This document shows, in pieces, positions 3,591-46,279 of a stretch of 52,218 bases of DNA. The stretch spans positions 1 through 52,218 of the IMG/VR virus record IMGVR_UViG_3300033142_001318. One strand, 5' to 3'. A program made the translations under genes and the position numbers. The notes under the pieces are model-generated. The model saw only the letters and a list, made by a program, of their open reading frames with translations. It did no database searches and had not been told where the DNA came from. Source of the stretch: a virus (lineage: Duplodnaviria; Caudoviricetes). How positions within the stretch are numbered: the stretch's first letter is position 1; each line of letters begins with the position of its first letter.

Positions 3591-3968
3591 ATGGACCCCG
3601 GAATGATGGCATATCCGCCTAATATAGAGATAAAGAGATTTATAGTTACGACGTCTGCTGAGACGGATAGTCTAACACCCAAAGCAGGTAAAAGAATCCA
3701 CGTAATAGGACACACGACGTCTCAAGTCGTAGGGAGTAAAGTTACGGCTACGGTAAAAGCGACTTTAGCGTTTGGTAGAGATGGTGCCGATGTACCAGAT
3801 AAAATATTAGATAGTAATAATCAAATTCATATTAGTAGTCATACGAGTTCTCATGTAGATGATGTAAATATATTAGGTGATGTGGACGAGATTATACAAT
3901 TAAAAAATACTACATTCAGTTCCGGAAGTGTTACCACCCGAGCAACAATTTATTATCTTGAAGAATAA
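3591..3968 (+). CDS. Small beta-rich putative virion protein
   Basis: Abuts the previous gene; beta-strand-rich. Confidence 0.55.
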   Translation: MDPGMMAYPPNIEIKRFIVTTSAETDSLTPKAGKRIHVIGHTTSQVVGSKVTATVKATLAFGRDGADVPDKILDSNNQIHISSHTSSHVDDVNILGDVDEIIQLKNTTFSSGSVTTRATIYYLEE

Positions 3969-3990
3969 TTATAATTATAAGGAGTTATAA

Positions 3991-4329
3991 ATGGGAAAAA
4001 GGTTTGTCGAGCTTTCAGGTCGAGGTAGTGGTATACCCGATTACGCCCCCGAGACGATAGGTTCCGGGCGTCAGGTTATACCTACTGCCGGAACTGCGGT
4101 ACAACTTGCGAGCACATTGACGATAGGTGGAATAATCATTGTGGCAGAGTTTACTAACACCGGCATTGTCTGTGTGGGAGATCTCAATGTTGTTGCGGCG
4201 GAACTTACACGGCAGGGTGTTCCACTGAATGCCGGTGATGGCGTGATAATATGTATCGACAATATTTCCAAAATATGGATAGATTCTACATCTGATGGTG
4301 ATGGTGTGACTTATACGATGGTGGGTTAG
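3991..4329 (+). CDS. Small beta-sandwich putative virion protein
   Basis: AGGAG RBS; pattern A..TN.G.VCVGD...GVPLNAGD.....IDNISKIWID. Confidence 0.6.
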   Translation: MGKRFVELSGRGSGIPDYAPETIGSGRQVIPTAGTAVQLASTLTIGGIIIVAEFTNTGIVCVGDLNVVAAELTRQGVPLNAGDGVIICIDNISKIWIDSTSDGDGVTYTMVG

Positions 4330-4332
4330 ATT

Positions 4333-5982
4333 ATGGATCTAGATTACATAAAAGCACCGGATGCACCACCCGAATATGTGGCTGAGGTGAGTCCGAGTTT
4401 CCATTATAATTCGTTTAAACGGCAATTCCCGACCATACAGGAAGCCATAGACTTCATGCATGGAAAATACGGTGCACATACAGGTGTTATTATAAATGTA
4501 CACAGTGGTTATTATACAGAACAAATCCACAGTTACCCGGGGTATTTTATAAGGGGGATTGCACGACACGCCCCAACCAACGAATTACGTCCGGTAACAC
4601 TTTATAATACCGGTCTTGACCCGGCGCATTATCCGATGCGGGCAGAAGCTAATGATTTTTATCTTATGCAGAATATAAATATTATAACCGATGCAGGTGG
4701 TACATTTGGTAAACTCGGACAAGATAGGTACGACGGGGTCTATTTCGGTGGTGGATCATTTACAGAATCAACTTTTGACACGGTTGTATATAATACGTGG
4801 ATGGATTGTTCATTCGTAAACTCTAAAGCTTTTAATCTTACAGGTACGAACGTAGCTAATGCCCGTTATTTAGTGTTACTCAATTGTTGGTTCGGGTGGT
4901 GGCAAAACCCGGTACTCACATCGACACACACCGGTGGTTATGCAGTTTTTGATATGGACGGCGGGCACCTTGCGTTTACTAATTTGACGTTAGGTGGCGA
5001 TTGGTACCATTTTGCCAAAAATTATCATAGTTTCGGTGCTTATAGGCACGTATATGATACTACAGCCGGGATTGCATACAGAGGTGTGACGGTATCAAAC
5101 GGAATTCATTTCGTGTCTGACCCGGGAGTATTCCAGATGGCGAACTGTGATATGTTGGACTCCGCCGAAATGCCTTTACCTGCGGATCAGTGTGATATTA
5201 CGGCTGATGTCCCAATTACAGATGCCATATTGGTAGGAAATCAAATGTTTAATGGTATCTGTGGCGAGATCCAGATAACAGATCATGTGAAGAACGTTGG
5301 TGGAGACGCTTCAAATAAATATTTTGATCTTGTGGAAGCTGTTAAATCTGTAACAGGTGAAGATATCATAATGTTAGGTGAAGACCAGATAGATGTACCG
5401 AAACTCACAATGCCGGCATCAGGGACGGTTCAGATCAGGGGACGTTCACTGTACGGAATTACATTCACAGGTGATATTGCAGATTTGACAGCGAATGATA
5501 TATTAATATTTGATGCGTGTGGAGCGATTACGGGAGGAACCGTAAACGTGAACGGGAATAATGCTGAACTTCACATGCATGGGTGTATATGTTCAGAAAA
5601 TGCATTCGAGATTCTTGTGACTTCCGGTACGGATGCTATTGTACATATACGTGATTCTTCACTTACAGGGAGTGCGGGAAAATCTGCTCTTCAGATTAAT
5701 AGTATAGATCCATCGTATAAGGTTTCGTTCTCACGTCTTACAGGTGCAACTGGAGAGCCAGCTGTGGAATTTACCGTGGAAGCAGACGACAAGTTTAAAG
5801 CGAAATTTTCAACGTTATTACATGGGGATGGTGGGGCGAATTATCCGGTTATTTATACTGGTGCAGGAAAAATTTCAATCGCCGTATATAATTCGGGACT
5901 TAATTCTCCGTGGAATGCAGCTGAATTTGCAAATAGTATCGGAGGGGCTAATAATGCCACAGATATAGCTATCGATTTCTAA
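4333..5982 (+). CDS. Parallel beta-helix (pectin-lyase-like) spike/adhesin
   Basis: FPTIQEAID..IINVHSGYYTEQI cap motif and a second YFDLVEAVKS..DIIML cap, suggesting two beta-helix units. Confidence 0.6.
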   Translation: MDLDYIKAPDAPPEYVAEVSPSFHYNSFKRQFPTIQEAIDFMHGKYGAHTGVIINVHSGYYTEQIHSYPGYFIRGIARHAPTNELRPVTLYNTGLDPAHYPMRAEANDFYLMQNINIITDAGGTFGKLGQDRYDGVYFGGGSFTESTFDTVVYNTWMDCSFVNSKAFNLTGTNVANARYLVLLNCWFGWWQNPVLTSTHTGGYAVFDMDGGHLAFTNLTLGGDWYHFAKNYHSFGAYRHVYDTTAGIAYRGVTVSNGIHFVSDPGVFQMANCDMLDSAEMPLPADQCDITADVPITDAILVGNQMFNGICGEIQITDHVKNVGGDASNKYFDLVEAVKSVTGEDIIMLGEDQIDVPKLTMPASGTVQIRGRSLYGITFTGDIADLTANDILIFDACGAITGGTVNVNGNNAELHMHGCICSENAFEILVTSGTDAIVHIRDSSLTGSAGKSALQINSIDPSYKVSFSRLTGATGEPAVEFTVEADDKFKAKFSTLLHGDGGANYPVIYTGAGKISIAVYNSGLNSPWNAAEFANSIGGANNATDIAIDF

Positions 5983-5999
5983 TAAAATAGAAGGTAATA

Positions 6000-6161
6000 A
6001 TGATAAATATAAATGAAATAAGGATTAGATCACTTGTGGGTATCGTAAGTATGTCCATAGTAATGATTATATTGAATATCCAACAAGTAGAGGTCTTACT
6101 CGGATACATGGGCGCGTGTACAGCAGCAATCTTACTGGATAAACCAGATACAGACGTTTAA
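6000..6161 (+). CDS. 53-aa protein with two hydrophobic segments (holin-like candidate)
   Basis: Not in the ORF track; GAAGGT RBS; MININEIRIRSLVGIVSMSIVMIILNIQQVEVLLGYMGACTAAILLDKPDTDV. Confidence 0.5.
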   Translation: MININEIRIRSLVGIVSMSIVMIILNIQQVEVLLGYMGACTAAILLDKPDTDV

Positions 6162-6298
6162 GGTGTTAAATTGTTATCACAAGCACTCATAATAATGGAA
6201 TCAATAATACTGACCACAAGTACAAAAGATCCACGACGTACAGAATTGATTACAATTAGAGATATTATAATAAATTATATGGAGAGTGAGGATATAGA

Positions 6299-6703
6299 AT
6301 GAAAGATTTTAGTAATTATATATTAATAGTAGATGACAGTGTGGCGTATATGCGTCTATTATTAGAATCTATGGTCGATAATGGCAATGGGAAACTCTCC
6401 GGGCATATTCTTTTTGCAGAGGATGCCGACAAAGGTTTTGAATTGTACGTATTATATCGTCCTATGATTGTTCTTATGGATGTTCGAATGCCCGGGAAAT
6501 CCGGGATCGATGCAGCTAAGATGATTGTGGATTATGATAAATCTGCAAATATAATGCTGGTTACGAATTATAGTAATGATCCTGGAATTAGTAAGGCTAT
6601 ATCAGACAAATTAGTTAATGGAAAGATTGATAAAGGAGTTGGGGTTGGTATTATCGCCGCTATGGTAACAATAATACTTAAAACTGCTGGTAAATTGTTA
6701 TGA
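6299..6703 (+). CDS. Response regulator receiver (CheY-like) with C-terminal hydrophobic helix
   Basis: ILIVDDS, phosphoacceptor LMDVRMPG, conserved T (LVTN) and K (IDKG); tail VGVGIIAAMVTIILK. Confidence 0.9.
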   Translation: MKDFSNYILIVDDSVAYMRLLLESMVDNGNGKLSGHILFAEDADKGFELYVLYRPMIVLMDVRMPGKSGIDAAKMIVDYDKSANIMLVTNYSNDPGISKAISDKLVNGKIDKGVGVGIIAAMVTIILKTAGKLL

Positions 6704-6817
6704 TGGGTAATGTTAGAAAGGGATTGGATGATATCTATGGCTATGGAGTACTTTTAGATATTTCCAAATTTATGGAAGAACAATATAAAAATAGATATAA
6801 GATTAGGGATGATATAA

Positions 6818-7555
6818 GTGGACGGTATATTAAATAAAGAATTCGTAACAAATTTACAGGTATTCCAGAACCGATTTTCAGATTTCTTCGGTGTTGCATC
6901 GGCGATCTTTGATGACACGGGAAAAATGATTACAGAACCTTCCGGATTTACAGATTTTTGTAAAACGATACGTGCTACGAAGGACGGGGGTAGGGCGTGC
7001 CGGGATTCCAAGAAAGGACTTTTCGATATAGTAGCAAACGGTGAACCTGCAACATACCACTGTGCGATCTTTTCACAATTGGCAGATTCGATTGTTCCGG
7101 TCATGTGGAATGGTAAAGTTATTGCTGCATGGGCGATAGGACAGAAACGTGTTGAGGATATTCCAAGATCAGAAATCAATAAGACGGCAGAAAGGATCGG
7201 TGCGAAACCGGATGACTTGTGGGCTGGTTACGAAAAACTACCACTTACCACGATGGATGAGTTTGAGAAGGCTGTGTTTTTCCTTCATACCACGATTTCA
7301 ACGATCATGAAGATGCGGGAACAAGATATTGAATTAAAAGAAACCTTGGATAAATTTACAACTATAAATGGTATTGTGGCACATGATATGCGTGAATCAT
7401 TATCAACTATATTAGGATTTATAAAATTACTCGATAATAGATATGGTGCTACCGAAAATGATGAATTCAGGGATTTCGTGTCCTATATCGTTACCTACGG
7501 TGAAAAACTTAAAAATACGGCAAGCTTACTAATCGATGCCTGTGAAAAGAGGTGA
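6818..7555 (+). CDS. PocR sensor domain plus HisKA/DHp domain, no HATPase domain
   Basis: PocR pattern LQ.FQ..FS..FG.A..I.D..G..IT..S.FT.FC..IR...G...C..S...YHC...L.D...P.....IGQ; H-box AHDMRESLSTILGF; ends shortly after the DHp helices. Confidence 0.85.
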   Translation: MDGILNKEFVTNLQVFQNRFSDFFGVASAIFDDTGKMITEPSGFTDFCKTIRATKDGGRACRDSKKGLFDIVANGEPATYHCAIFSQLADSIVPVMWNGKVIAAWAIGQKRVEDIPRSEINKTAERIGAKPDDLWAGYEKLPLTTMDEFEKAVFFLHTTISTIMKMREQDIELKETLDKFTTINGIVAHDMRESLSTILGFIKLLDNRYGATENDEFRDFVSYIVTYGEKLKNTASLLIDACEKR

Positions 7556-7559
7556 TTAC

Positions 7560-7763
7560 ATGATTGAAATAGACACTGATGAACTGAATAAATTTCGATT
7601 ACCGGGTTCAAAAGATAAAAAGAAACGGAAAAAGAAAGCTAAATCCAAATCTGTGAAGGAGGTTATAAGTGATGCGTATGAGGAGAAGGAAGATGAGAAG
7701 AAATTCCCATGGGAATCCACGTTACCAAAACATGGTGTTCAAAGTATATATACTGTAAAGTAA
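7560..7763 (+). CDS. Small basic tagged protein
   Basis: GAGGTGA RBS before ATG 7560; MIEIDTDELNK followed by RLPGSKDKKKRKKK. Confidence 0.65.
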   Translation: MIEIDTDELNKFRLPGSKDKKKRKKKAKSKSVKEVISDAYEEKEDEKKFPWESTLPKHGVQSIYTVK

Positions 7764-7769
7764 TTATCG

Positions 7770-8561
7770 GTGAATTTAATGGATGATATATTAGAAAAAG
7801 GTGCTGTGATAGACTTTATAGCGAAATTATTAAAGTCTATAGACATACCGGGTTTCCGGGTACTACTTACGAGTAGGGTCATAAACGCCTTCACGTCGTC
7901 ACACGAGGACACCAACGAAGAATACAACCTCGGTAGGACAAAAGCAGATCCCTTAGCACTTGATTATCTCCGTGAGCGTGAATTAATTCTTTCAGATAAA
8001 ACTAAATCGAAATTGGATGGTGATCTTAAGTTTGAGATTCTGGAGGCAATGAAGGCTAATGAATCGATCTCAGAGATTACAAACCGTTTAGATGGGATAT
8101 TTACAGATATGTTACCGTGGCAACTCGAGAGAATCGCCCGGTCGGAGGTTGTAAATGCCCAGAACGCCGGTCGTCAATCGGCATACGAAAAATCCAGTGT
8201 GGTTAAATATAAAATGGTAGTCGGTGCAAAGGATAAACGACTATGCGCATTATGCCGACGAATGCAAGGTCAAATTCAACCTGTAGATAAACCATTCCGA
8301 GACCCGGAAAATCCGACTAAGACGTGGATGTATCCTATATTCCATGCGAATGGACGGTGTTCAACAGTACCTCTGATACGACTTCCGGACAATGTGATTA
8401 CTGTGGGTGGACAGATGTATGCTGGAGATAAGAAACTCGGGAAGATCGAAATTAATATTGAAAAATTATTAAAGTCCGAAGATCCACAGACACATGAAGT
8501 TTGGGTCAAGCAAACAGCGAAACGAAAAGGGCATTGGCGAACTATTAAAAATAAAATATAA
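7770..8561 (+). CDS. Head morphogenesis protein (MuF / SPP1 gp7 family)
   Basis: RIARSEVVNAQNAG, CALC and PIFHANGRCS motifs; C-terminal IEINIEKLLKSE tag. Confidence 0.85.
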   Translation: MNLMDDILEKGAVIDFIAKLLKSIDIPGFRVLLTSRVINAFTSSHEDTNEEYNLGRTKADPLALDYLRERELILSDKTKSKLDGDLKFEILEAMKANESISEITNRLDGIFTDMLPWQLERIARSEVVNAQNAGRQSAYEKSSVVKYKMVVGAKDKRLCALCRRMQGQIQPVDKPFRDPENPTKTWMYPIFHANGRCSTVPLIRLPDNVITVGGQMYAGDKKLGKIEINIEKLLKSEDPQTHEVWVKQTAKRKGHWRTIKNKI

Positions 8562-8573
8562 AGGTGATTAAAT

Positions 8574-8732
8574 ATGACAGAAAAAGGTGAACCGAAACGA
8601 GATGGTTCCGGTGGTGGAACGCGCGCTAACTATAACCGTGGTGGGTGTCAGGATGGCGAGACGTGTGATGTCCTGGGAAATGTAATAAGAGAGCAATATC
8701 CGAGACGAGGTAATAGGAATAATGGCAGGTGA
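8574..8732 (+). CDS. 52-aa Gly/Arg-rich protein
   Basis: AGGTGA RBS; PKRDGSGGGTRANYNRGGC; not in the ORF track. Confidence 0.45.
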   Translation: MTEKGEPKRDGSGGGTRANYNRGGCQDGETCDVLGNVIREQYPRRGNRNNGR

Positions 8733-8919
8733 AGGTAGGAAAGAACCGGAAAGTATTGAAACGTTTTCGGTTGATGATTATAAAGATAAATTGATCTCGG
8801 AAGGATATTCGGATTCTACGGCATTGATGCTTGCAGAGAAAAAACGAGATAAATTATCGGAACAAGCAATGAAAATGGAAAAATCAGAATTGATAGAAAT
8901 TGATTTATCAAAACTTTAA
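8722..8919 (+). CDS. Small protein ending in the tag (MEKSELIEIDLSKL)
   Basis: GAGGT RBS; C-terminus matches that of the prohead protease. Confidence 0.65.
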   Translation: MAGEGRKEPESIETFSVDDYKDKLISEGYSDSTALMLAEKKRDKLSEQAMKMEKSELIEIDLSKL

Positions 8920-8945
8920 AAGTTTATGACCAAAAGGTTTATATA
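8910..8945 (+). promoter_or_regulatory. Palindrome + BRE + TATA promoter upstream of the HNH gene
   Basis: AAAACTTT-A-AAAGTTTA then tgaccaaaagg then TTTATATA. Confidence 0.75.
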
Positions 8946-8978
8946 GGATGAGAGCTAATGTACTTATGGTAAGTATAT

Positions 8979-9917
8979 ATGATAGGTAGACCTCCAGATA
9001 AAATGAAGAAAATAATAAAACCATGTAAACAATGTGGTGAATTATTTGAATCTTATATATCTAGTAATAGAAAGTTCTGTTCACTTAAATGTAGATCAGA
9101 TTATTATACTGGTGAGAATCATCCTATGAAGAAAGAAGAATCAGAACTTATAAGATACACAAAAAAGTGTCGAAATTGTGGTATAGAATTTACAAGTTGT
9201 GATTATAAGGCTATTTTTTGTTCACAAGAATGTTCACATGTATGGCATAATAGTGACAAAAACCCTAATCGTACGAGTAAAATATTTATAAATTGTAAAC
9301 AATGTAATAAATTATTTACTATTTATCCAAGTGAAAAAGATAATAGGAAATTCTGTTCACATGAATGTGCGGATACTTGGAGGAGAGAATCTGGATTATA
9401 CAAAGGTGAAAATTCTGTACATTGGAAAGGTGGTAAGGTAACAGTTATTTGTAAACAGTGTGGTTGTGAATTTAAAGTAGATCCACATCAAAAAGATATA
9501 AAGAAATTTTGTTCTAATACTTGTTATTATATGTGGATGTCAGAAAATAAATGTGGGAAAAATAGTCCAGTATGGAAAGGTGGAATTTCATTTGAACCAT
9601 ATTGTGAAGATTTTAATAATGCTAAAAGATTGGAGATTCGTGAAAAATATAATAATTGTGATTATTTAACTGGAATCCATCGTGATATCTGTAATGTTAC
9701 GAAGAGTGGTAAAGTTAGAGAATTGACAGTCCATCATGTGGATTATGATAAACGACAAGGTTGTGACGGTATTAAATGGAAATTGATTCCTGTATCAGGT
9801 AGGCACAATTCTATGTTTAATAAAAATAGATCATTTTGGGAACGATTAATATTATACGCATTAGAATATGATGAAGAATATTATGAAAATAAAGAATTTA
9901 ATATATTAGATATTTAA
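8979..9917 (+). CDS. HNH homing-endonuclease-like protein with four zinc-ribbon repeats
   Basis: Repeated CxxC...FCSxxC units, WKGG motifs, C-terminal LTVHHVDYDK...HN; AT-rich; own promoter. Confidence 0.8.
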   Translation: MIGRPPDKMKKIIKPCKQCGELFESYISSNRKFCSLKCRSDYYTGENHPMKKEESELIRYTKKCRNCGIEFTSCDYKAIFCSQECSHVWHNSDKNPNRTSKIFINCKQCNKLFTIYPSEKDNRKFCSHECADTWRRESGLYKGENSVHWKGGKVTVICKQCGCEFKVDPHQKDIKKFCSNTCYYMWMSENKCGKNSPVWKGGISFEPYCEDFNNAKRLEIREKYNNCDYLTGIHRDICNVTKSGKVRELTVHHVDYDKRQGCDGIKWKLIPVSGRHNSMFNKNRSFWERLILYALEYDEEYYENKEFNILDI

Positions 9918-10001
9918 TTCTGATTAATTTTGATATTTTTTGGTAGATTAACTATTAGTCTATCTTATTTAATTTTTTTAGATATTTGGAGGTAAATATA
10001 G

Positions 10002-10943
10002 ATGGAGGAACAAGAAGAAAATAAAATCACAGATAACGAATTCAATTATCATGGTGAATTGACTAAAATAGAGAAATCAAATGATGGTAATATCTATATC
10101 GCCGGAATTTGTACAACAGAAAAAATGGATCATGACGGTGAAATCGTAGATCTGAACGAGGTCCGGAAGGTGTGGGATGATTACATGACCAACCCCGTAC
10201 TAAAATACATGCACGGTAAGGACACATCGAACATGGCTGCTATTGGGGTTGTGGTGCCTTCTTATACAGATTCGACAGGTAAGATGTGGAAGACCGAATT
10301 TACTGATGAGGGACCGTTTATTGTATGTAAGATATCAAATGCCCCGGATACGGAAAGTATCCGAACAAAAGTTGAAGAGGGGATCGTGAAGGGCTTTTCA
10401 ATTGGTGGGAGAGCAAAAAGAGTAAAAACATTCGATCCTACACTACAAAAAGACGTAAATCGTGTTATAACAACCCGGATCTCAGAAATAAGTCTCGTAG
10501 ATCTACCAGCAAATCCTGACTCGTTCTTTTCAGTACTAAAAGCAGCATGTGTGGGAGATAACTGTCCCATGAATGACGACACAGAAACCATCGAGAAGGG
10601 TGAAGGCAAAGCCCCTAAAACGTGGTGGGACAACTGTATGGGAACCGCAAAGGGGATCCCGGGTATGAAAGATGCATCAGCATTCTGTGGTTGGATGTGG
10701 GCACACGGTAAGGAAGATTTCGGACCACAACGGAGCGAAATTGGTAAGATTGAGGACGATCCGATTGTAGACCAAGCGGTGGCAAAATTTGAAGAGTTAA
10801 TTGTGGAAAATGCCACATTGAAAGACAGATTAGAGAAACTCGAAACGGGTTTGGATAACATGGTAAAGATCGAAGAGGAAGATCTCACCGTCCAAAAATC
10901 TGAAAACAGTAATCTAATCGAAATTAATTTACAGGAACTATAA
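10002..10943 (+). CDS. HK97-type prohead protease with C-terminal coiled coil and tag
   Basis: DHDGEIV, catalytic H (YMHG), GFSIGG, EISLVDLPANP; ends QKSENSNLIEINLQEL*. Confidence 0.9.
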   Translation: MEEQEENKITDNEFNYHGELTKIEKSNDGNIYIAGICTTEKMDHDGEIVDLNEVRKVWDDYMTNPVLKYMHGKDTSNMAAIGVVVPSYTDSTGKMWKTEFTDEGPFIVCKISNAPDTESIRTKVEEGIVKGFSIGGRAKRVKTFDPTLQKDVNRVITTRISEISLVDLPANPDSFFSVLKAACVGDNCPMNDDTETIEKGEGKAPKTWWDNCMGTAKGIPGMKDASAFCGWMWAHGKEDFGPQRSEIGKIEDDPIVDQAVAKFEELIVENATLKDRLEKLETGLDNMVKIEEEDLTVQKSENSNLIEINLQEL

Positions 10944-11042
10944 ATATTGAACGGGTAGATCGATTGACCTACCGCCAATGACCTATACAGCGAGGCACAA
11001 AAAATAATAATTACTCCATAATAAATAAAATATGGAGGTAAA

Positions 11043-11567
11043 ATGATAGGAGGAAAAACTATGGAACAAGAAGAAGGAATTGTTCGGCTAGAAGTAGACG
11101 AACTTACGAAATATATCGAAGATACCGTTACTAATATGGTCGAGAAGCAGGAGACAGTTGAAAAACTCGAGGATTACGACAGACTCGTAGCTGAGCTCAA
11201 GGATATGCGAAAGAAGATCGAAGATCTTGAAGCAGCGGCAAAGGCTAACGTGAAGAGTATGAAGACAGGTACCGAGACATCATATAAGTCAGAGGGTGAT
11301 GTAGAAGATCCTGATACTGTGGAGAAGGCTAAAAAGAAGGAAAAGGAACCAAAGAAGAAGTATGATGACGAGGGTAACGAAATCACTGAAGAGGCGGATA
11401 TGACCGTCAAAAAGATGGAAGAGTTAGAGGCTGAGATTGCGGAACTAAAGGCGAGCCCTCTATATAAGGCACAGCAGGACGAGGGTACAGTCGAGAAGAC
11501 TGAGTCTACCGAGACACCGACGGGTATACTGTCAGGTGTAATCGCAGCACATTACGGAGGTAATTAA
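11043..11567 (+). CDS. Capsid scaffolding protein (start could be 11061)
   Basis: Highly charged coiled coil lying between the protease and the capsid gene. Confidence 0.75.
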   Translation: MIGGKTMEQEEGIVRLEVDELTKYIEDTVTNMVEKQETVEKLEDYDRLVAELKDMRKKIEDLEAAAKANVKSMKTGTETSYKSEGDVEDPDTVEKAKKKEKEPKKKYDDEGNEITEEADMTVKKMEELEAEIAELKASPLYKAQQDEGTVEKTESTETPTGILSGVIAAHYGGN

Positions 11568-11568
11568 T

Positions 11569-12618
11569 ATGGCAAAAGATGGGTGGGGAAATGGTGGAGA
11601 AATCGACCATGAATCCCTTTATAAGATGAGTTTCGGTGAACTCCCGGATGAGAGTATCTTCGAAGATGCAATGAATGGTGTACACACGTTCGCAAAGGGT
11701 GAGAAACTTGTGACACAAACCGGAGAAGGCGAACTAGCGAAGGCTGTTAATGTGGGTGCCGCATCCGGTGCCGCAGGGTATGCGTATACCCCGATTGTGT
11801 GGGATCAGGCAGTAATTGATATCACACGGAGAATGACCCCTCTAATTGGTCTAATCCCGAAGGTGACCAATAAGGGTAAAGTTGCGCAGTATTATCGTGT
11901 TACCGCAAGAGGAGCTGCAACGTGGGGCGCCGAGGATCCAGCACTTAATGAGACGGATGATACGAAGGAAGAGGCGAGTGAAGCAATCAGATATCTACGT
12001 GTCACCGGGCGTGTAACTGGTGTTGCACAGATCGCGGGCGCTCACTTCGAGAGTTCAATGCAGAGAGAAGTTCTTAATAAGACACAATCAATGAATGAAG
12101 CACTTGAGGCTGCTATTCTGACAGGAAACAACGCTACGGACCAGTACCAGCATGATGGACTTCAACAACTTCTAACGTCTAATTCATCAAGTCAGGGTGG
12201 AGCTATCACTCTATCTGCTGTAAGAAAGCTTGTAAGTGATTGTTTTGTTGCAAAAGGTGCACCAAATTTGATCGTAACAGATCCTTACACAGCAGATGAT
12301 CTTGTTGAGCAGATTATGGACTACACAAGATATGTTGATCCTAATGTAACACTTGCATGGGGACTTCAACTACCATCTGTTCAGACAGTAGTTGGTAGGG
12401 TTCCAATTCTGGCAAGTCAGTTTATGCCGAATACGAGCACAGAAAGACGTCTGTTCTGTATTAACACCAACTTTATCCAGCAGAGAATTCTGAAGGATAT
12501 CACGTTCGAAAGACTGGCGAAGACAGGAGATTCTGAGAAGTTCTTCCTATCAACGTACAGGACGATGGTTAACAAATTCCCTGAAGGTATGGGCCAACTT
12601 TACGAAATATCGGACTAA
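11569..12618 (+). CDS. Major capsid protein, HK97 fold
   Basis: Follows protease and scaffold; AKA.. GYAYTPIVWD..I, TPLIGLIP, E.AILTG, DGL, GRVPILASQFMP patterns. Confidence 0.85.
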   Translation: MAKDGWGNGGEIDHESLYKMSFGELPDESIFEDAMNGVHTFAKGEKLVTQTGEGELAKAVNVGAASGAAGYAYTPIVWDQAVIDITRRMTPLIGLIPKVTNKGKVAQYYRVTARGAATWGAEDPALNETDDTKEEASEAIRYLRVTGRVTGVAQIAGAHFESSMQREVLNKTQSMNEALEAAILTGNNATDQYQHDGLQQLLTSNSSSQGGAITLSAVRKLVSDCFVAKGAPNLIVTDPYTADDLVEQIMDYTRYVDPNVTLAWGLQLPSVQTVVGRVPILASQFMPNTSTERRLFCINTNFIQQRILKDITFERLAKTGDSEKFFLSTYRTMVNKFPEGMGQLYEISD

Positions 12619-12641
12619 TTAACTATATTTAGTTAAGTTTT

Positions 12642-12680
12642 ATATTAGACGGTTTCATTATAAGTGAAACCGTCTAATAT
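12642..12680. terminator. Perfect 16-bp stem-loop after the capsid gene
   Basis: atattagacggtttca-ttataag-tgaaaccgtctaatat; a 7-bp hairpin also lies at 12619-12636. Confidence 0.6.
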
Positions 12681-12723
12681 GTAACAAATAAGAACAAGAT
12701 AATTATATAATGGAGGAAAAAAT

Positions 12724-14945: not shown

Positions 14946-15889
14946 ATGGCGTGGTATAATAGTAGTTGGTCGAGGCGGAAGGCAATCACCCTAACCGGAG
15001 GTAGTTCTGGCGCTCAAACCGATTATCAACTCAAATTAACGGTAGCATGGGATTCCGACATGAAATCGGACTTCTCAGACCTGAGATTCACGAAAGCGGA
15101 TGGCACAACCCTCCTCGATGCCTGGATGGAATCGCATACTGCGTCCACATCTGCCGTTGTATGGGTTGAAACTGATACCCCGGCAAACACTGTGGAAGCC
15201 GATATTTATATGTATTACGGGAATTCCGGTGCTTCGAGTGATTGGGATGGAGACGCTACATTTAAATTTTTCGATGATTTTGAGGGCGATCTAAGTAAAT
15301 GGACAAATGAATCAGGTGGCGCATTAGCTATTGTTACCGATCCGACAGTACTTCGACTCAAGAATCTTATGCTTCATTTACAAACCAAACAAGTGACTTT
15401 GTAATGGAATTTTATGCGAGAGTCCATAATAGTGGTGCAAGATATCGTTATATTATGATCGAGAAAGTTGGTGGATCAGAAAACGATTCCGTTAAACTTC
15501 AATGGTTCCAAGACACAAAACTTCGATATCAAAGTGATAGTGGTGATGTCGAAATCATGAATGTTAGTATGGACACGTGGTATCGCTTCAAGATAGCTGT
15601 TCACCCATCAACCGATACGTTTGATATGTGGGTAGATGGTGTTTCTAAAGTTACCGGTGGCGATGTGTCGGGAAGTATAACGAGTGGGTGTTCAGCGATA
15701 TCAATGTATGGATATGTTACTTCCGCCGATTATCCGCAATACATAGATTCTGTATTAATGTATAAATACGTAGCAAACCCAGCGACATACGCATTCGGTA
15801 GTGAGGAAGGTGCACCGACAGGTAGATTTATGTGGAAAGTAAATGGCGGAACAATGAGAGGATTAGTTAACGGAGGATTAGCAAGATGA
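14946..15889 (+). pseudogene. DUF2341 plus ConA/LamG-like virion protein, split by a frameshift near 15345
   Basis: W..RKAITL...DYQLKL....DFSDLRFT...WME...VWV...IYMYYGN...FFDDFE (DUF2341); the frame of ORF 15404 extends upstream as DSTSTQESYASFTNQTSDFVMEF. Confidence 0.65.
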
Positions 15890-17121
15890 TGTATTTAGGA
15901 GATTATGCTGAGGATCAACCTGTATACTTCGCATGGAATACAAGTGATTCTGACGGAGCATCGATAACACGAAGTGGAGATGGAACGATTTCAGTATACA
16001 AAGATGCATCCAACGGGACTGCGTTTGACACAACACAGGTTACAACCGGGATTACAAACGATGAAGATTTCGATGGATTGACTGGTGTGCATACATGCTC
16101 AATCACAACCACAGATGCGTGGTATGAAACGGGCCATGATTACATGGTGGTGCTTTCAGGATCAACTATAGACACACAGACAGTAAATGTTGTGCTCGCT
16201 CATTTCTCGATAGAAAATAGATTTATGAGGGGAACAGACTCAGCTGCAACAGCGGCAGCACTTACAACACACGACGGAAAGCTCGATACTGTAGATACCA
16301 ATGTCGATAGTATACTGACCGACACAGGAACGACCCTACCAGCCAGATTTACCGGAATCGAGGGAGCAACGTTCGATACTGGAACGGATAGTTTGGAAGC
16401 AGTTCGTAATAGGGGTGACGCCGAGTGGGTTACAGCAACTGGATTCTCAACACATACAGCAGGCGATATATGGTCTGTAGCGACACGTATACTCACAGCA
16501 AGTACTAATTTCAATGATATATCGGCAGCAGACGTCAACACGCAGGTGGATACAGCATTGTCGGACATAAACCTTGACCATCTCATGAAAATCGGGGTAG
16601 ATACCAATTGGGCGACAACCGTGCATCTTGATAGTGCTCTTGGACATATTGCCGACGTAGGTACAACCGCAACATTTGATAGGACTTCAGATGCACTTGA
16701 AGCAATCAGAAACCGTGGTGATAGTGAGTGGATTACAGCCACTGGATTCAATACGGTTGTCCCGGATGCTGCTGGTGTTGCACCTACGGCAGTTGAAATT
16801 CGACAAGAAATGGACGCTAATTCCACAAGATTAGATGCCGATATATCGAGTAGATCAACCGTCACTACAGCACAAGTAAACGCGGAGGTTGTGGATGTGT
16901 TGAGGACCGATACATCAGTTGAACCAACACAAGGTGCACCAACGGCGACACCGACGATGGAGGAAATGATAAAATATCTGTATTTCAAATTGAGGAATAA
17001 AGGAGAAACCACATCAACAGAAGATACGATGTATGCGGATAATGGATCAACAAAGATAATGAAGGCAACTATTAGTGATAATGGAACTACGTTTACAAAG
17101 TCAGAGTATATAAGTGGTTAA
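15886..17121 (+). CDS. Thr/Asp/Ala-rich virion fibre protein with an internal duplication
   Basis: TFDTGTDSLEAVRNRGDAEWVTATGF and TFDRTSDALEAIRNRGDSEWITATGF. Confidence 0.65.
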   Translation: MMYLGDYAEDQPVYFAWNTSDSDGASITRSGDGTISVYKDASNGTAFDTTQVTTGITNDEDFDGLTGVHTCSITTTDAWYETGHDYMVVLSGSTIDTQTVNVVLAHFSIENRFMRGTDSAATAAALTTHDGKLDTVDTNVDSILTDTGTTLPARFTGIEGATFDTGTDSLEAVRNRGDAEWVTATGFSTHTAGDIWSVATRILTASTNFNDISAADVNTQVDTALSDINLDHLMKIGVDTNWATTVHLDSALGHIADVGTTATFDRTSDALEAIRNRGDSEWITATGFNTVVPDAAGVAPTAVEIRQEMDANSTRLDADISSRSTVTTAQVNAEVVDVLRTDTSVEPTQGAPTATPTMEEMIKYLYFKLRNKGETTSTEDTMYADNGSTKIMKATISDNGTTFTKSEYISG

Positions 17122-17133
17122 GTAGGGGTTTAA

Positions 17134-18801
17134 ATGGCAATAGATAGTGCGGATAAGCGAAAGTCGGCGGTAAATTGGCTCCTTCGGATTTTGCCTATCC
17201 CAGATAGTGTGATAAGTAGTATAGATAGAAAGCATGTAGGTGGATTTTATCGTATATTTGTAGGATTAGTAACTGAGACTATTACACTATCTTCTGATTT
17301 ATTAATCAAAAAGTTAAATGTTGTTGTTGACTTTAGTTCTGATTTATTAATATACACAAGAACTATTAAATCATTAACGTCTGATTTATTAATCAAAAAG
17401 TTAAATGATGTTGTTGACTTTAGTTCTGATTTATTAATCAAAAAATTAAATGTTGTTGTTGACTTTAGTTCTGATTTATTAATATACACAAGAACTATTA
17501 AATCATTAACGTCTGATTTATTAATCAAAAAGTTAAATGTTGTTGTTGACTTTAGTTCTGATTTATTAATCAAAAAGTTAAATGTTGTTGTTGACTTTAG
17601 TTCTGATTTATTAATATACACAAGAACTATTAAATTATTAACGTCTGATTTATTAATTAAGAAATTAGATATACCCGTACCAACGACTTCCGATCTGATT
17701 ATAGTTTTTAAGAGATACGAACTAATATTGTCCGATCTGTTAATCAAGAAGTTAGGTATCATAAAAGCAATAACTATAGATACGCTAATCAGAAGGGTAG
17801 ACAATGTTACAACCTTAATATCAGATATACTGATTAAGAAACTAGATATAGTACGAGATTTAACTACAGATCTGTTGATATATGTAAGAATCATCAATAA
17901 CTTTTCAGCCGACATCCTAATACGTGGTGAGATACTTGTATCAGCAACTATCGATGTACTGGTTGGTGTAAATAATAATGTTAAATCTGTAACATCAGAT
18001 CTATTAACATGTATTACAGACATTAGAAAAAGTACATCATCCGATCTATTGACACAAATCCAATTTTCAGTATCAACTGTGTCTAATATACTGATTAGGA
18101 AGTCGGAAATTGTAGATTACACGTCGGATTTCCTTATTCGTATCACGGATAGAATCAAGAGTATATCTACAGATTTGTTAATGATTGCTGTGATACCTAT
18201 AGTTATGATTTCTGATACACTAATCAGAAAGTTGAAAATACTAGTTCATACAACATCAGATATATTAATCAGTATTACAGATCTGGTAAGAACGACGACT
18301 ACAGATTTATTATTGAAGGGTACATTACCGATATCTATAATTTCTGATACATTATTTAGAGCAGTAGATATTATTAGGTCTGTGACTTCAGATTTGTTGA
18401 TATATACTAGGTATGACATAAATACGACATGTAATATATTATTTAGAAAAACAAATATAATACTATCGAATACGATCGATATATTATTAAGAAAAGTAGA
18501 TACGATAATATCATTTACTACAAATTTATTGTTATATACTAGAACTATCAAAGATGTAATATGTGATTCTCTTATAAGAAAATGTCACCTTGTGGCGGAC
18601 GTAATTGCTGATGTTGTGATTACAATTGAAGAGAGAATAAGATTAAGGTCATATATTAATATATCAGAAGACATAAAATCATATATAACTACTACGATAT
18701 ATAAAGATTCTGGTGTAACAACAACCATATCAGGATATTCAGAGACGGATAGTGGTATATCGATATCAAGATATTCGAAGATAGACCTGAATAATGTATA
18801 A
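17134..18801 (+). CDS. 14/15-aa repeat (SDLLI) beta-fibre protein
   Basis: About 30 repeats of [ST]DxLIxx over the length of the protein. Confidence 0.7.
   Translation: MAIDSADKRKSAVNWLLRILPIPDSVISSIDRKHVGGFYRIFVGLVTETITLSSDLLIKKLNVVVDFSSDLLIYTRTIKSLTSDLLIKKLNDVVDFSSDLLIKKLNVVVDFSSDLLIYTRTIKSLTSDLLIKKLNVVVDFSSDLLIKKLNVVVDFSSDLLIYTRTIKLLTSDLLIKKLDIPVPTTSDLIIVFKRYELILSDLLIKKLGIIKAITIDTLIRRVDNVTTLISDILIKKLDIVRDLTTDLLIYVRIINNFSADILIRGEILVSATIDVLVGVNNNVKSVTSDLLTCITDIRKSTSSDLLTQIQFSVSTVSNILIRKSEIVDYTSDFLIRITDRIKSISTDLLMIAVIPIVMISDTLIRKLKILVHTTSDILISITDLVRTTTTDLLLKGTLPISIISDTLFRAVDIIRSVTSDLLIYTRYDINTTCNILFRKTNIILSNTIDILLRKVDTIISFTTNLLLYTRTIKDVICDSLIRKCHLVADVIADVVITIEERIRLRSYINISEDIKSYITTTIYKDSGVTTTISGYSETDSGISISRYSKIDLNNV
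17293..17643 (+). repeat. Coding tandem array of 45-bp (A) and 42-bp (B) units in the order ABAABAAB
   Basis: A=tctgatttattaatcaaaaagttaaatgttgttgttgactttagt; B=tctgatttattaatatacacaagaactattaaatcattaacg; copies nearly identical. Confidence 0.9.
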
Positions 18802-20188: not shown

Positions 20189-21886
20189 ATGGTATTTAAA
20201 TTTGAGAATAATGCGTCATCTAGTGTGAATAATACTCCACTCTCTGCCGGTGATCTTACACTGAACCTCCCGGCAGGTGAGGGGGCTAATTTTCCGACGG
20301 TTGGTAATTTTAGATTGACAATCTGGAATGCCACTGTGTACGCTAATCCTGGTGATGATTCCGAAATGGAAATCGTGGAGTGCACATCTCGTACAGATGA
20401 TGTACTCACGATCATCAGAGCACGGGAAGGAACATCGGATGTAGAACATGCACATGGACGTAAAGTAGCATTATTATTAACTTCTGGGGTGTTCAATGAT
20501 CCGACACAAGGTATCTATAATACGTTTGTCGAAGATTCCGACTTCAATGAACAAACTATCCTCGTGGCAGTAACAGATGACACACCAGTAGCCGTAACAG
20601 TCGATGAAGATACCATCGTCGGTAGGATCACGGCAGGAAACGTATCCGCACTTTCTCCGAGTGATGCAAGGACTATCCTCAACATTGAGGATGGTGCAGA
20701 TGTGACGGATGCCGTTAATGTGGATGATGCCGGTGCCATTATGGATACCGACATCGTTGAAGATGAAGGTTTTGTCCGGAAGACCGGATCGGAGACTTAT
20801 GAAGCCATAAAATCAAACCTGAATGCATCTACAGTACCAACAGTAGATGAAGATTCAGGTGATGGTTATGCTGTAGGTAGTCGTTGGATTGACACGAGTG
20901 GAAACGCTGAATATGTATGTATAGATGCATCTTCTGGTGCAGCGGTATGGATGAATACGACCATATCTACAAATACTACACAAGGTCTCACAGATTTATT
21001 TAGGCATTATTGTTCACAGGTCTATGGATGGTGTGGTGGTGGTAGTACGGGTGCAAATTCCGACGTTATAGACAGAATAACACTTACTGCCGATACGACC
21101 AATGCAATCGATAGATGTAATCTATCTATTGCACGGTATGGTGTGAGTTCTTTCACAAATAATGTTTATGGTTGGTTTGGTGGTGGTGATGATGGTTCAA
21201 TTTCCGATACGGTAGATCGGATTACAATAGAGGTGGATACAACTAATGCCTCTGATAGGTGTAGTTTATCTTCATCTAGAAGATATCTCAGTGCATTCAC
21301 AGATAATATACATGGATGGTTCTGTGGTGGGTATGGAACTACTTATTCTAATGTGATAGATAGTATAACTCTAGCTTCAGATACCAATAATGCTGATGAT
21401 AAGTGTGATTTGAGTGTTGCAAGATATGGAATAGGGTGTTTTACTGACAATACTTATGGATTCTTTGGTGGGGGTGACACAGGTGCAATTTCTGATGTTA
21501 TAGATAGAATGACTCTAAGTGATGATATCATAAATGCAATAGATCGTTCTAATTTATCATCGGCACGGAGAAATCTAACGGCATTTACGGACTATATTTC
21601 TGGTTGGTTCTGTGGTGGATATACAACTTCAAACTCTGATATAGTAGATAAGATAGATTTAGCAATTGATATGAATAATGCTGTGGATCGTTGTAATATA
21701 AGTGTTGCAAGATATGCACCATGTTCATTTTCGGATCACTCATACGGGTGGATTTGTGGTGGTTATACTACCGAGGAATCTGATATAGTGGATAGAATTA
21801 CAGTAGCAAACGATACGGTAAATGCTGTAGATAGATGTGATTTAACCGTAGCGAGACATGGATTATCCGGATTTACAGGTAAATAA
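20189..21886 (+). CDS. Tail fibre / receptor-binding protein with a C-terminal six-repeat kelch-like beta-propeller
   Basis: N-terminal EIV.CT.R..D.LTI.RA.EGT fibre-attachment motif; six GWxGGG..DRI....D..NA.DRC.L..AR repeats. Confidence 0.75.
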   Translation: MVFKFENNASSSVNNTPLSAGDLTLNLPAGEGANFPTVGNFRLTIWNATVYANPGDDSEMEIVECTSRTDDVLTIIRAREGTSDVEHAHGRKVALLLTSGVFNDPTQGIYNTFVEDSDFNEQTILVAVTDDTPVAVTVDEDTIVGRITAGNVSALSPSDARTILNIEDGADVTDAVNVDDAGAIMDTDIVEDEGFVRKTGSETYEAIKSNLNASTVPTVDEDSGDGYAVGSRWIDTSGNAEYVCIDASSGAAVWMNTTISTNTTQGLTDLFRHYCSQVYGWCGGGSTGANSDVIDRITLTADTTNAIDRCNLSIARYGVSSFTNNVYGWFGGGDDGSISDTVDRITIEVDTTNASDRCSLSSSRRYLSAFTDNIHGWFCGGYGTTYSNVIDSITLASDTNNADDKCDLSVARYGIGCFTDNTYGFFGGGDTGAISDVIDRMTLSDDIINAIDRSNLSSARRNLTAFTDYISGWFCGGYTTSNSDIVDKIDLAIDMNNAVDRCNISVARYAPCSFSDHSYGWICGGYTTEESDIVDRITVANDTVNAVDRCDLTVARHGLSGFTGK

Positions 21887-21887
21887 T

Positions 21888-22541
21888 ATGACAAATATAG
21901 ATATAGAAAACTATGAAACTTATCATAGTAATTTAAAAGAACAATTTCATGAATTTGCACAGAGAAAATCAGACTTTCAAGTCGAAAAGTTTACAGCGTG
22001 TTCTGATGGTACGATACCATCACATCAATATCGGCATACACTTGTCCAGATTCGTGTTGCACTTACTGAACTAAAAAGGCGGATTGTTGATCGAGAACGT
22101 CAAATCCGGGTTCGGGATCGTGCAATAGAAAATAAATCTGAAGACTGGGATTTAGATGTAGCAGGAGCGGAGACTGAAATTGAATCTCTCACCTATGATA
22201 TTGAATCAAAACTTATTGAGGTTAACGGTTACGCTGCAATTTTGGAACAACTTGAGAAAGAAAATGGTAAACCCTTTACGAATGCCGACTTTCAGGCGGA
22301 TGAACCAGAATATTGGAAACGTAGATTTGCTAGACAAATGCATGATTCCGTAATAGACAGACAGACCGGGTGTGGTCAAGGTAACCTTATTGCACTTCGT
22401 GAAGCATGTATAGATCCAATAATTCCTGGATCTCCGAATCAATTGGAGGTACTACCTATGGATGTTAGAGTTTTGGCATTAATAGCAGAAGGTGTCGATC
22501 TAAAAATGCTTGAGGAAGGCGAAGAGGAAGATGGTATATAA
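21888..22541 (+). CDS. Coiled-coil protein, likely partner/chaperone of the propeller fibre
   Basis: Start reassigned to ATG 21888; coiled coil followed by EPEYWKRRFARQ. Confidence 0.6.
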   Translation: MTNIDIENYETYHSNLKEQFHEFAQRKSDFQVEKFTACSDGTIPSHQYRHTLVQIRVALTELKRRIVDRERQIRVRDRAIENKSEDWDLDVAGAETEIESLTYDIESKLIEVNGYAAILEQLEKENGKPFTNADFQADEPEYWKRRFARQMHDSVIDRQTGCGQGNLIALREACIDPIIPGSPNQLEVLPMDVRVLALIAEGVDLKMLEEGEEEDGI

Positions 22542-23502
22542 GAGATATACATCAAAATATGTCTCAGATATGTTACGGGTGTGTCGAGCAAATAGATTTG
22601 TTGGTGTAATTATGTTACCTGTTGATGTTATTGTCTATGGAAACTTTTATGGTTGGTTTGGTGGAGGAACAACTGGAGCATATCACGATATCATTGATCG
22701 TATTACCCTTACAGATGATACAACAAATGCAATAGATAGATGTGATTTGACAGTGGGAAGATCACATCTTGCAGCATTCGCAGACAATACGTATGGTTGG
22801 TTCGGTGGTGGAACAATTGGAGCATATCTTAATATCGTTGATCGTATTATCCTTGCAAATGATACAGCAAATGCAATAGATAGATGTGATCTGAGTACAT
22901 CGAGATATGGTCTTGCAGCATTCACAGACGATACTTATGGTTGGTTCGGTGGTGGAGTAGTAGCGAATAATGTTGATCGTATTATCCTTGCAAATGATAC
23001 CGTAAATGCAATAGATAGATGTGATCTGATTGGATATAGATATAATATTGCAGCATTCACAGACAATACGTATGGTTGGTTCGGTGGTGGTATTATTTAT
23101 GCTGGTACTGCAAAATATGATGTAATAGATCGTATTACCCTTGCAGATGATACCACAAATGCAATAGATAGATGTGATTTGACAGTGGCAAGAGATGGTC
23201 TTGCAGCATTCACAGATTTAACTTACGGGTGGTTTGGTGGTGGTCTTGCAGCAGTATATAGGACCAAATGTGTTGATCGTATTACCCTTGCAAATGATAC
23301 CGTAAATGCAATATATAGATGTGATCGGAGTATAGCGAGGGAGGGAGTTGCCGCATTCACAGATGATACTTATGGTTGGTTTGGTGGTGGAAATGGGGAT
23401 GATGATACCATTGATCGTATTACCCTTGCAGATGATACCACAAATGCAATAGATAGATGTAATCTGACTGTAGGAAGAGAAGCAACAGCAGCATTCCATT
23501 AG
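22531..23502 (+). CDS. Kelch-like beta-propeller paralogue 2
   Basis: Six YGWFGGG...DRITLADDTTNAIDRCDL repeats; start at ATG 22531. Confidence 0.8.
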   Translation: MVYKRYTSKYVSDMLRVCRANRFVGVIMLPVDVIVYGNFYGWFGGGTTGAYHDIIDRITLTDDTTNAIDRCDLTVGRSHLAAFADNTYGWFGGGTIGAYLNIVDRIILANDTANAIDRCDLSTSRYGLAAFTDDTYGWFGGGVVANNVDRIILANDTVNAIDRCDLIGYRYNIAAFTDNTYGWFGGGIIYAGTAKYDVIDRITLADDTTNAIDRCDLTVARDGLAAFTDLTYGWFGGGLAAVYRTKCVDRITLANDTVNAIYRCDRSIAREGVAAFTDDTYGWFGGGNGDDDTIDRITLADDTTNAIDRCNLTVGREATAAFH

Positions 23503-23516
23503 GAAATGTATAAAAT

Positions 23517-23627
23517 ATGAATAAAATCACAATCGATAAGATGAAGTCCCGGTTTAGTGAGTTCATTCAAAGAAAGTCCGATTTTCAGATTAAGAAGTTT
23601 GTTGGATGGAGTATAAATGGTATTTAG
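23517..23627 (+). pseudogene. Truncated copy of the 21888-22541 gene
   Basis: MKSRFSEFIQRKSDFQIKKF compared with LKEQFHEFAQRKSDFQVEKF. Confidence 0.7.
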
Positions 23628-24648: not shown

Positions 24649-24650
24649 TC

Positions 24651-39656: not shown

Positions 39657-39700
39657 ATCCTTATAGACTTTTGCCTATAATGTATTATTGGGCGTGATCC

Positions 39701-39736
39701 TATATAAAGATTGTGGTTTAAAACTTTAAAAGTTTT
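39701..39736 (-). promoter_or_regulatory. Palindrome + BRE + TATA promoter
   Basis: Minus strand reads AAAACTTT-T-AAAGTTTT aaaccacaatc TTTATATA. Confidence 0.75.
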
Positions 39737-41420: not shown

Positions 41421-41479
41421 ATTATCACCTTATCTATATACTATTGTACTTAATCATATTTAAACTTTGTGATTATACT

Positions 41480-42322: not shown

Positions 42323-42333
42323 CTAATTATCCT

Positions 42334-45781: not shown

Positions 45782-45791
45782 AAATTAAAAG

Positions 45792-46270: not shown

Positions 46271-46279
46271 AATTGTTTA

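Follow-up and report, generated by a model that had tools for sequence, protein, structure and literature searches.

A DHp domain without the CA (ATPase) domain of a histidine kinase cannot phosphorylate itself. In Spo0B and ChpT, a His-bearing four-helix bundle only passes phosphate on. PMC5847659 (Galperin et al. 2018) describes archaeal "HisKA, no HATPase" proteins with a conserved His from Archaeoglobi and Methanomicrobia, proposes phosphotransfer or phosphatase roles for them, and presents stand-alone receivers as dominating archaeal signaling and expected to act through protein contacts; PMC11784639 supports this contact mode for archaeal receivers. Two-component parts are rare in viruses. 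Here we describe a pair of such parts, a PocR-DHp sensor of 245 residues and a stand-alone receiver of 134 residues, encoded in the virus record IMGVR_UViG_3300033142_001318 (IMG/VR; Caudoviricetes). The record is linear, 52,218 bases long, and about 59% complete according to CheckV; it was analyzed in full and is called the window below.

The sensor consists of a PocR ligand-binding domain, a long helix, and a complete DHp hairpin with its phospho-acceptor His; its C-terminus falls at the point where its cellular relatives continue into the ATPase domain. The two genes appear to form a conserved accessory signaling cassette of a tailed-virus lineage, probably of archaea, that would have been assembled from a stand-alone receiver and the half of a cellular PocR histidine kinase responsible for sensing and phosphotransfer. 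With slightly better than even confidence, we read the whole as a ligand-gated phosphotransfer/phosphatase pair running on host phosphodonors. The cassette and its immediate neighbors are arranged as follows.

6000 to 6161, plus strand: small protein of 53 residues with two hydrophobic segments (open reading frame; Kyte-Doolittle)
6171 to 6302, plus strand: open reading frame of 43 residues with a TTG start; its stop overlaps the receiver start (ATGA)
6299 to 6703, plus strand: stand-alone receiver (REC) of 134 residues (Pfam Response_reg)
6700 to 6837, plus strand: acidic open reading frame of 45 residues that overlaps the receiver and PocR-DHp genes
6818 to 7555, plus strand: PocR-DHp sensor of 245 residues (Pfam PocR and sub-threshold HisKA)
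7560 to 7763, plus strand: Lys-rich small protein of 67 residues from the ATG at 7560 (start at 7536 in the open reading frame lister)
7770 to 8561, plus strand: MuF-like minor head protein (Phage_Mu_F, 40 bits; PHROG head morphogenesis families)

Domain structure of the sensor and the receiver

The PocR domain of the sensor (PF10114) scored 119.4 bits against a cut-off of 23.9 and covered profile positions 7 to 160 of 162, while the HisKA domain (PF00512) scored 21.0 bits (E = 3.6e-4), under the Pfam cut-off of 26.9. An hhalign comparison aligned the family profile with residues 369 to 618 of P0073, a PocR-HisKA-HATPase kinase of 782 residues (99.6%, E = 8e-24, 225 columns). The aligned stretch runs from PocR across the linker to the end of the DHp, with the H-box and alpha-2 included; the viral sensor stops seven residues after it, at the start of the P0073 CA domain. 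The viral H-box, AHDMRESL...LLDNRY, is of the same subtype as the SHDLQEPL...LLARRY of P0073 and P0086, the nearest PocR kinases. The family profile also found the DHp domains of solved kinases with the His aligned (3a0r_A, E = 1.1e-3; 8f71_A, 1.8e-3; 4jas_A, 1.6e-2), so that matches to ThkA, 8f71, and HK853-type chains lie between E = 1e-3 and 2e-2. The motif AHDMRES occupies sensor residues 188 to 194, and its His189 is invariant in all 13 members of the family alignment, as are Glu193, Cys48, Cys82, and 25 other positions. Glu at His+4 was considered as an unusual phosphatase motif and rejected, since the nearest full kinases carry the same Glu in their SHDLQEPL H-box.

An AlphaFold2 model of the sensor (mean predicted local distance difference test [pLDDT] 82.3) has a mixed alpha/beta domain at about residues 7 to 140, a helix at 146 to 209 carrying His189, a turn, and a second helix at 215 to 243, with pLDDT values of 63 to 76 in the helical part. 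In the model, these two helices have the shape of a DHp hairpin, and the chain ends 2 residues past DHp alpha-2. Foldseek searches with the model returned weak matches to GAF/IclR-type ligand domains (TM-scores around 0.3). An earlier sequence-only reading of this DNA had recognized a PocR domain joined to a DHp with its His in AHDMRES and no HATPase domain in the protein, and these results bear it out.

The receiver matched Response_reg (PF00072) at 43.4 bits against a cut-off of 30.2, and its homologue in the related contig L002 reached 48.5 bits. It belongs to a family of 15 proteins (13 of the 15 database clusters are exactly 134 residues long) in which D12, D13, D61, T89, and K112 are invariant in every member, in agreement with the intact DD/D/T/K residues noted earlier. 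Judged from its sequence, the protein is a complete receiver with all of the residues of the phospho-chemistry. The AlphaFold2 model (pLDDT 87.3) shows all strands and helices of the (beta-alpha)5 fold in order, including beta-5 at 108 to 111 and alpha-5 at 116 to 133, and superposes on LuxO-REC, Spo0F, VicR, CheY, and DivK with Z scores of about 15 to 16, from residue 5 to residues 129 to 134. The best solved and curated matches are CheY proteins, namely archaeal CheY 6er7 (E = 4.7e-14) and NCBIfam CheY_Halo (8e-12, far below its cut-off). This is the only receiver gene in the window.

No HATPase_c domain was found in the sensor protein by Pfam, in the six frames of the window, or in the six frames of four related viral records (57 kb); the same search was positive in 14 of 14 control genomes. 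All five records are fragments, and the related four are 12 to 28% complete by CheckV. The sampled sequence supports the sequence-only reading in its description of a virus-borne two-component module without an ATPase domain. A split kinase, in which a CA domain is made as a separate protein from the unsampled viral genome and completes a normal two-piece autokinase, would fit with the roughly 41% of the genome that lies outside the window and with the fragmentary state of all four relatives. We consider it quite unlikely: besides the lack of HATPase_c in 52 kb here and 57 kb of relatives, the sensor gene has a clean end behind DHp alpha-2, with conserved genes other than kinases coming immediately after it in every lineage, and sensor-HisKA proteins without a CA domain are a recognized archaeal class (PMC5847659).

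The receiver had also been described as membrane anchored. Because of the fold order of the model and the superposition, its C-terminus is better read as alpha-5 itself than as an added anchor: the helix at 116 to 133 (pLDDT about 82) aligns with alpha-5 of solved Spo0F, CheY, and DivK, and nothing follows it. On this model, alpha-5 cannot span a membrane while the receiver domain stays folded. The sequence-only reading had named an ordinary alpha-5 helix as the alternative to its anchor, and the helix is alpha-5 by position but far from ordinary in composition. Its hydrophobicity, taken as the Kyte-Doolittle mean of up to 19 residues from K112+2 onward, was 1.19 to 2.01 in all 13 full-length family members, compared with a mean of -0.19 (standard deviation, 0.47; maximum, 0.85) in 26 control receiver domains from hybrid kinases found with the same profile. 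These controls are 26 of 28 domain matches (2 that ended before profile position 85 were dropped), with the Lys placed approximately and some tails of 15 to 18 residues. Small residues recur at 115, 120/121, 124, and 131 of the helix, and large aliphatic residues take the remaining positions. From this pattern we infer that the alpha4-beta5-alpha5 side offers a constantly hydrophobic surface for contact with a putative partner protein.

The 53-residue protein upstream of the receiver has two hydrophobic segments, as the earlier reading stated: two stretches of about 16 to 17 residues (best 19-residue Kyte-Doolittle mean, 2.12) are followed by a short, charged tail of 7 residues (DKPDTDV), and GAAGGT precedes the ATG. 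Its description as holin-like drew on size and hydrophobicity only and is unsupported, with no family match and no lysis enzyme nearby. A receiver whose C-terminal helix anchors its tail in the membrane and that times lysis together with this protein would account for the mean hydrophobicity of its last 19 to 21 residues (1.65 to 1.85, above the classical threshold of 1.6) and for the constant presence of a small two-segment protein just upstream. It is nevertheless very unlikely, given that the helix is the alpha-5 of the fold, that the unbroken hydrophobic run is 14 residues long and then gives way to K-T-A-G-K-L-L, and that no holin family match was obtained and no lysis enzyme was recognized in the window. 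Little is known about how tailed viruses of archaea bring about lysis.

Conservation, selection, and gene neighborhood

The absence of the CA domain is a family trait, since all matches from a word-index search and the best matches from an exhaustive search were short. The former returned 15 sensor matches, all of 218 to 269 residues and down to 45% identity. In the latter, against 1.84 billion representatives, the four best matches had 189 to 252 residues (E = 1e-76 to 1e-46); the next, after a gap, was a kinase of 676 residues (E = 1e-32) matching residues 12 to 179 only, and long kinases in general matched only the PocR part. Members of the sensor family are encoded on two viral contigs and ten metagenome contigs. 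In a scan of viral contigs, a single sensor protein used as the query found none and the family alignment found two, while a capsid alignment added further short records only.

The pair is conserved as a unit, as a comparison with relatives by tblastn with the window proteins made clear. The receiver gene lies directly upstream of the sensor gene in all eight loci with upstream DNA (the remaining four begin inside the sensor gene), and a MuF-like gene lies downstream in all ten that reach that far (L004 ends in the Lys-rich gene and L010 in the sensor gene). These twelve loci are not independent: L003 to L005 are 98 to 100% identical to the window, L006 and L012 correspond to L001, L011 to L009, and L008 to L007, which leaves six lineages (the window, L001, L009, L002, L010, and L007). 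The other lineages are 42 to 50% identical to the window in PocR-DHp, and in the family alignment the PocR domain is as well conserved as the DHp.

Ratios of nonsynonymous to synonymous substitution rates (dN/dS) were low for pairs with unsaturated synonymous sites. They were 0.10 for the sensor between L001 and L009 (199 codons), 0.10 for the DHp part alone between L001 and L011 (103 codons), 0.14 for the sensor between the window and L004 (245 codons), and 0.10 for the receiver between L002 and L010 (134 codons). A value of 0.5 for the receiver between the window and L003 comes with a dS of 0.012, too few changes for meaning. Capsid proteins are 74 to 85% identical between the same genomes in which the sensor is 46 to 50% identical, which means that the cassette evolves faster than the capsid and yet is kept. 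Taken together, the comparisons indicate that the receiver and sensor genes are inherited together beside MuF with purifying selection on both. The architecture resembles a truncated full kinase, and the pair might on that account be a functionless passenger, a captured host gene fragment heading for loss; a recent decaying host fragment had been raised in the sequence-only reading as well. We give this almost no credence, because the length, His189, and the catalytic residues of the receiver are conserved, synteny extends over six lineages, and dN/dS is about 0.1.

The genes of the cassette are tightly packed: start and stop codons overlap as ATGA at 6299 and at 6700, neighboring frames share 20 bases at 6818, and a GAGGTGA before the ATG at 7560 includes the sensor stop codon. 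Purine-rich motifs resembling ribosome-binding sites stand ahead of the small open reading frames. Scans for sigma-70 promoters and terminators gave no more sites than shuffled sequence. The open reading frame list places every gene where the sequence-only reading had put it, apart from one start: the 45-residue open reading frame exists as described, but 6703 is the second ATG of an ATGATG and the frame runs from 6700.

No Pfam or PHROG family was found for any of the small genes around the receiver and sensor, several of which are nonetheless shared between lineages. A two-segment protein of 53 to 57 residues precedes the receiver in all four lineages with enough upstream DNA; its homologues just upstream of the receiver are 85% (L001) and 25 to 31% (L002 and L007) identical to the 53-residue protein and have in common an I/V-R-S motif close to the N-terminus as well as a D-K that follows the second segment. 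The 43-residue open reading frame is present in two of these four lineages, with a homologue in L001 (50% over 38 residues), and is absent from L002 and L007, in both of which the small membrane open reading frame has the receiver as its immediate downstream neighbor. An acidic open reading frame of 36 to 55 residues separates receiver and sensor in five of five lineages. The counterparts of the 45-residue frame in L002, L010, and L007 share the motif R/D-D-I-Y-G/S-Y-G/A-L-L, with a weaker counterpart in L001/L006, and a word-index search with the 45-residue frame found only its own cluster. A complex prediction for the receiver, two copies of DHp residues 140 to 245, and the 45-residue protein as partner, run without controls, gave no answer in either direction (score, 0.00; mark, 0.32). 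The Lys-rich gene likelier starts at the ATG at 7560 (MIEID...) than at 7536, as its homologues begin MIEIE; the protein (about 67 to 71 residues) is kept in L001, L006, L009, L011, and L012 at 43 to 48% identity, and its place in L002 and L007 is taken by a two-segment hydrophobic protein of 73 to 77 residues.

The cluster lies inside a long plus-strand structural block, directly before the genes for the MuF-like protein, the protease, and the capsid protein, and the earlier placement beside head genes was correct. By sequence comparison, its upstream flank is variable and its MuF side is fixed. A protein of 549 residues encoded upstream of the cassette (4333 to 5982) has no Pfam or PHROG match; L002 carries two related copies at 3906 to 7275, the second an internally repeated open reading frame of 730 residues, and L001 has in its place two paralogues of 277 to 278 residues and a cohesin/dockerin protein. 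On the downstream side, the ATG at 7779, instead of the GTG at 7770, may be the start of the MuF-like gene. The MuF-like protein of L002 (10939 to 12924, plus strand; 661 residues) matches the PI3_PI4_kinase catalytic loop at its C-terminus (E = 2.2e-5; 24.9 bits, below the cut-off of 27.1); it is possible that a kinase-like cargo domain has been fused to MuF there, right after the signaling cassette. Between the MuF-like gene and the protease gene, an HNH endonuclease of 312 residues with repeated Cys-rich motifs (8979 to 9917) looks like a mobile insertion; other genes occupy this spot in L001, and a different gene of 257 residues does so in L002.

The viral genome and its probable host

Genes run on the plus strand from 154 to 38,559 and on the minus strand from 38,613 to 52,051 of the window, which has a G+C content of 34 to 44%. 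The plus-strand arm encodes the MuF-like head protein, the HNH endonuclease, a prohead protease, an SU10-type HK97 capsid protein, a head-tail adaptor, a tail tube protein, and fiber-like proteins. The minus-strand arm encodes an ATP-dependent DNA ligase, a clamp loader resembling replication factor C (RFC), an SNF2 helicase, a DNA methylase, and a nucleotidyltransferase. One tRNA-Trp gene is located at 50,937 to 51,007.

Among 50,697 deposited phage and archaeal-virus records, the capsid protein matched haloarchaeal tailed viruses only (four of four records; 22 to 26% identity), as did the clamp loader (three of three, all haloarchaeal viruses); the best curated models for the latter are archaeal RFC large subunits, all far below their cut-offs. 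According to PMC9894754, head-tailed viruses of ANME-1 (anaerobic methanotrophic archaea) consist of a structural arm and an enzymatic arm and have a capsid akin to that of haloarchaeal viruses. The two-arm layout and the capsid likeness of the window match this description, and on these grounds we think it fairly likely that the host is an archaeon. DNA near-identical to 4300 to 12700 of the window occurs in hydrothermal vent metagenome runs, at least eight of which contain half or more of the sampled words and may stem from one campaign; no RNA runs were among the 17 listed for this stretch. A blastn search of the region against phage records gave no match.

Pfam and PHROGs recognized no terminase or portal at E = 1e-3 among the 68 open reading frames of the window. 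These genes may lie in the absent part of the genome or be too divergent, and unassigned open reading frames of 411 and 555 residues at 15886 to 18801 are candidates. Four genes at 20189 to 25595 (565, 330, 343, and 314 residues) match phrog_19111 at E = 1e-36 to 1e-45. The first of them (565 residues) also has a tail-fiber N-terminus and is separated from the second by an open reading frame of 227 residues, and this paralogous array probably encodes receptor-binding proteins. In the region of 733 to 1907 and 154 to 615 of the window, two adjacent GNAT acetyltransferase genes (191 and 209 residues) overlap by 31 bases; a shared N-terminal motif of about 40 to 50 residues turns up at multiple sites across L001 and L002. 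The other HNH gene of the window lies at 41480 to 42322.

Proposed action and relation to known systems

The strict co-inheritance of one DHp with one receiver speaks for the two being cognate, and the conservation of PocR speaks for ligand gating. A PocR-DHp dimer would dock the viral receiver and set its phosphorylation in response to a small molecule. Since no CA gene was found in the window and its relatives, phosphoryl groups would have to come from the host, unless such a gene is located in the missing part of the genome. There are three conceivable routes: the CA domain of a host kinase may charge His189 in trans or in a heterodimer, a host receiver may transfer phosphate back, or small donors such as acetyl phosphate may act directly on the viral receiver. 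The DHp would work as a phosphotransferase, a ligand-gated phosphatase, or both. Because the receiver has no output domain, its phosphorylated form would act via protein-protein contact, likely through the abnormally hydrophobic alpha4-beta5-alpha5 face and with the co-encoded small proteins or another hydrophobic partner. The position among head genes suggests action late in infection.

It is also conceivable that the pair sabotages host signaling, with the DHp forming dead heterodimers with host PocR kinases and/or the receiver draining phosphate from host kinases (e.g., of the CheA/CheY type), so that a host response is silenced rather than the virus informed. The DHp does have the H-box subtype of cellular PocR kinases, the receiver has CheY proteins as its best solved and curated matches, and stand-alone receivers are known phosphate sinks according to PMC11784639. 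However, a lone decoy would not need the matched DHp-receiver pair that is kept together in every lineage, the equal conservation of PocR and DHp implies that ligand sensing matters, and an identity of 28 to 35% to the nearest cellular kinase is low for a protein that is to mimic a heterodimer partner; we regard sabotage as unlikely. A more specific form of the phosphotransfer/phosphatase reading, which we put forward only tentatively, is an ATPase-free phosphorelay on host phosphoryl donors, which would make it the first two-component module known from a virus of archaea. In it, a DHp gated by PocR would read a host metabolite and set the charge on the receiver, whose hydrophobic alpha-5 face would engage small co-encoded membrane proteins to time a late step, for example assembly or egress.

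Several points weigh against a ligand-gated pair that runs on host phosphodonors in an archaeal virus. HisKA scored below the cut-off of 26.9 in every family member scanned (17.9 to 26.4 bits; window, 21.0; L002, 19.6; L007, 17.9; P0017, 26.4), and P0016 had no HisKA match at E = 1e-3. A separate CA-domain gene could sit in the missing part of the genome (roughly 41%). The biochemistry of the pair is proposed from sequences and models, and the partner of the hydrophobic alpha-5 is putative. Regarding the host, the similarities behind the archaeal assignment are weak, the tail tube protein has Bacillus-type phages among its matches besides a haloarchaeal virus, and two scans of 185,579 species genomes found no relatives of the sensor family or the capsid family.

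Sources searched so far contain parts of this arrangement. The 50,697 deposited records mentioned above include no relatives of the sensor and three records with weak, partial matches to the receiver, although viral receivers as such are already represented in PHROGs (phrog_731, 5982, and 8810). No virus-encoded PocR-DHp/receiver pair is reported in the accessible portions of the literature searched, including PMC7824862, PMC11784639, PMC5847659, and PMC9894754; for the ANME-1 virome paper, PMC9894754, a term search covered the main text and five supplementary files and found no such pair described. Among 22 short PocR proteins outside the viral family, P0046 (393 residues) combines PocR with HisKA and P0097 (278 residues) combines PocR with His_kinase, both without HATPase; either may be an incomplete gene. 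The ESM Atlas confirmed the general families and listed short bacterial sensor-HisKA clusters, including one of 323 residues with PocR and HisKA, that may be gene fragments. Within these sources, the architecture is known from cellular archaea, and a conserved cassette of PocR-DHp plus receiver is new for a virus.

Compared with the full-length PocR-HisKA-HATPase kinases P0073 (782 residues) and P0086 (1128 residues), the viral sensor has a homologous PocR, linker, whole DHp, and H-box subtype, at about 28% identity, but is without the C-terminal CA domain of about 160 residues and without the N-terminal PAS/GAF and transmembrane parts. The ThkA-TrrA pair of Thermotoga maritima (3a0r), a PAS sensor kinase with a stand-alone receiver, is similar in combining a cytoplasmic sensor with a single-domain receiver, and ThkA is the best solved DHp match (E = 1.1e-3), with TrrA among the better receiver matches (E = 7.1e-11); the similarity is distant, however, and ThkA, which includes a CA domain, can autophosphorylate. 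One of the top structural matches for the receiver is Spo0F (Z = 15.8). The viral DHp resembles Spo0B and ChpT in the idea of a bundle that only passes phosphate on, but those proteins retain a degenerate CA-like domain and lack a sensor, whereas in the viral protein a sensor is present and the DHp is the last domain, the model ending 2 residues past alpha-2 with no degenerate CA-like domain.

The closest likeness is to the archaeal "HisKA, no HATPase" proteins, which are common in some archaea and have no known function. In PMC5847659, which lists PocR among archaeal kinase sensor domains, these proteins combine an N-terminal sensor with a C-terminal HisKA that has the conserved His and is followed by no HATPase, and the viral sensor has this make-up. 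They differ in being cellular, mainly from Archaeoglobi and Methanomicrobia, and in having no defined partner, whereas the viral protein is virus encoded, always accompanied by one receiver, and placed among head genes. With this fixed partner and compact genetic context, activity as phosphotransfer, phosphatase, or decoy could be tested directly on two small soluble proteins. If the proposed reading is true, the viral pair would reveal by what means the state of an uncultured vent organism is sensed by its virus, and the as yet unexplained "HisKA, no HATPase" proteins of cellular archaea would gain a model that is easy to work with.

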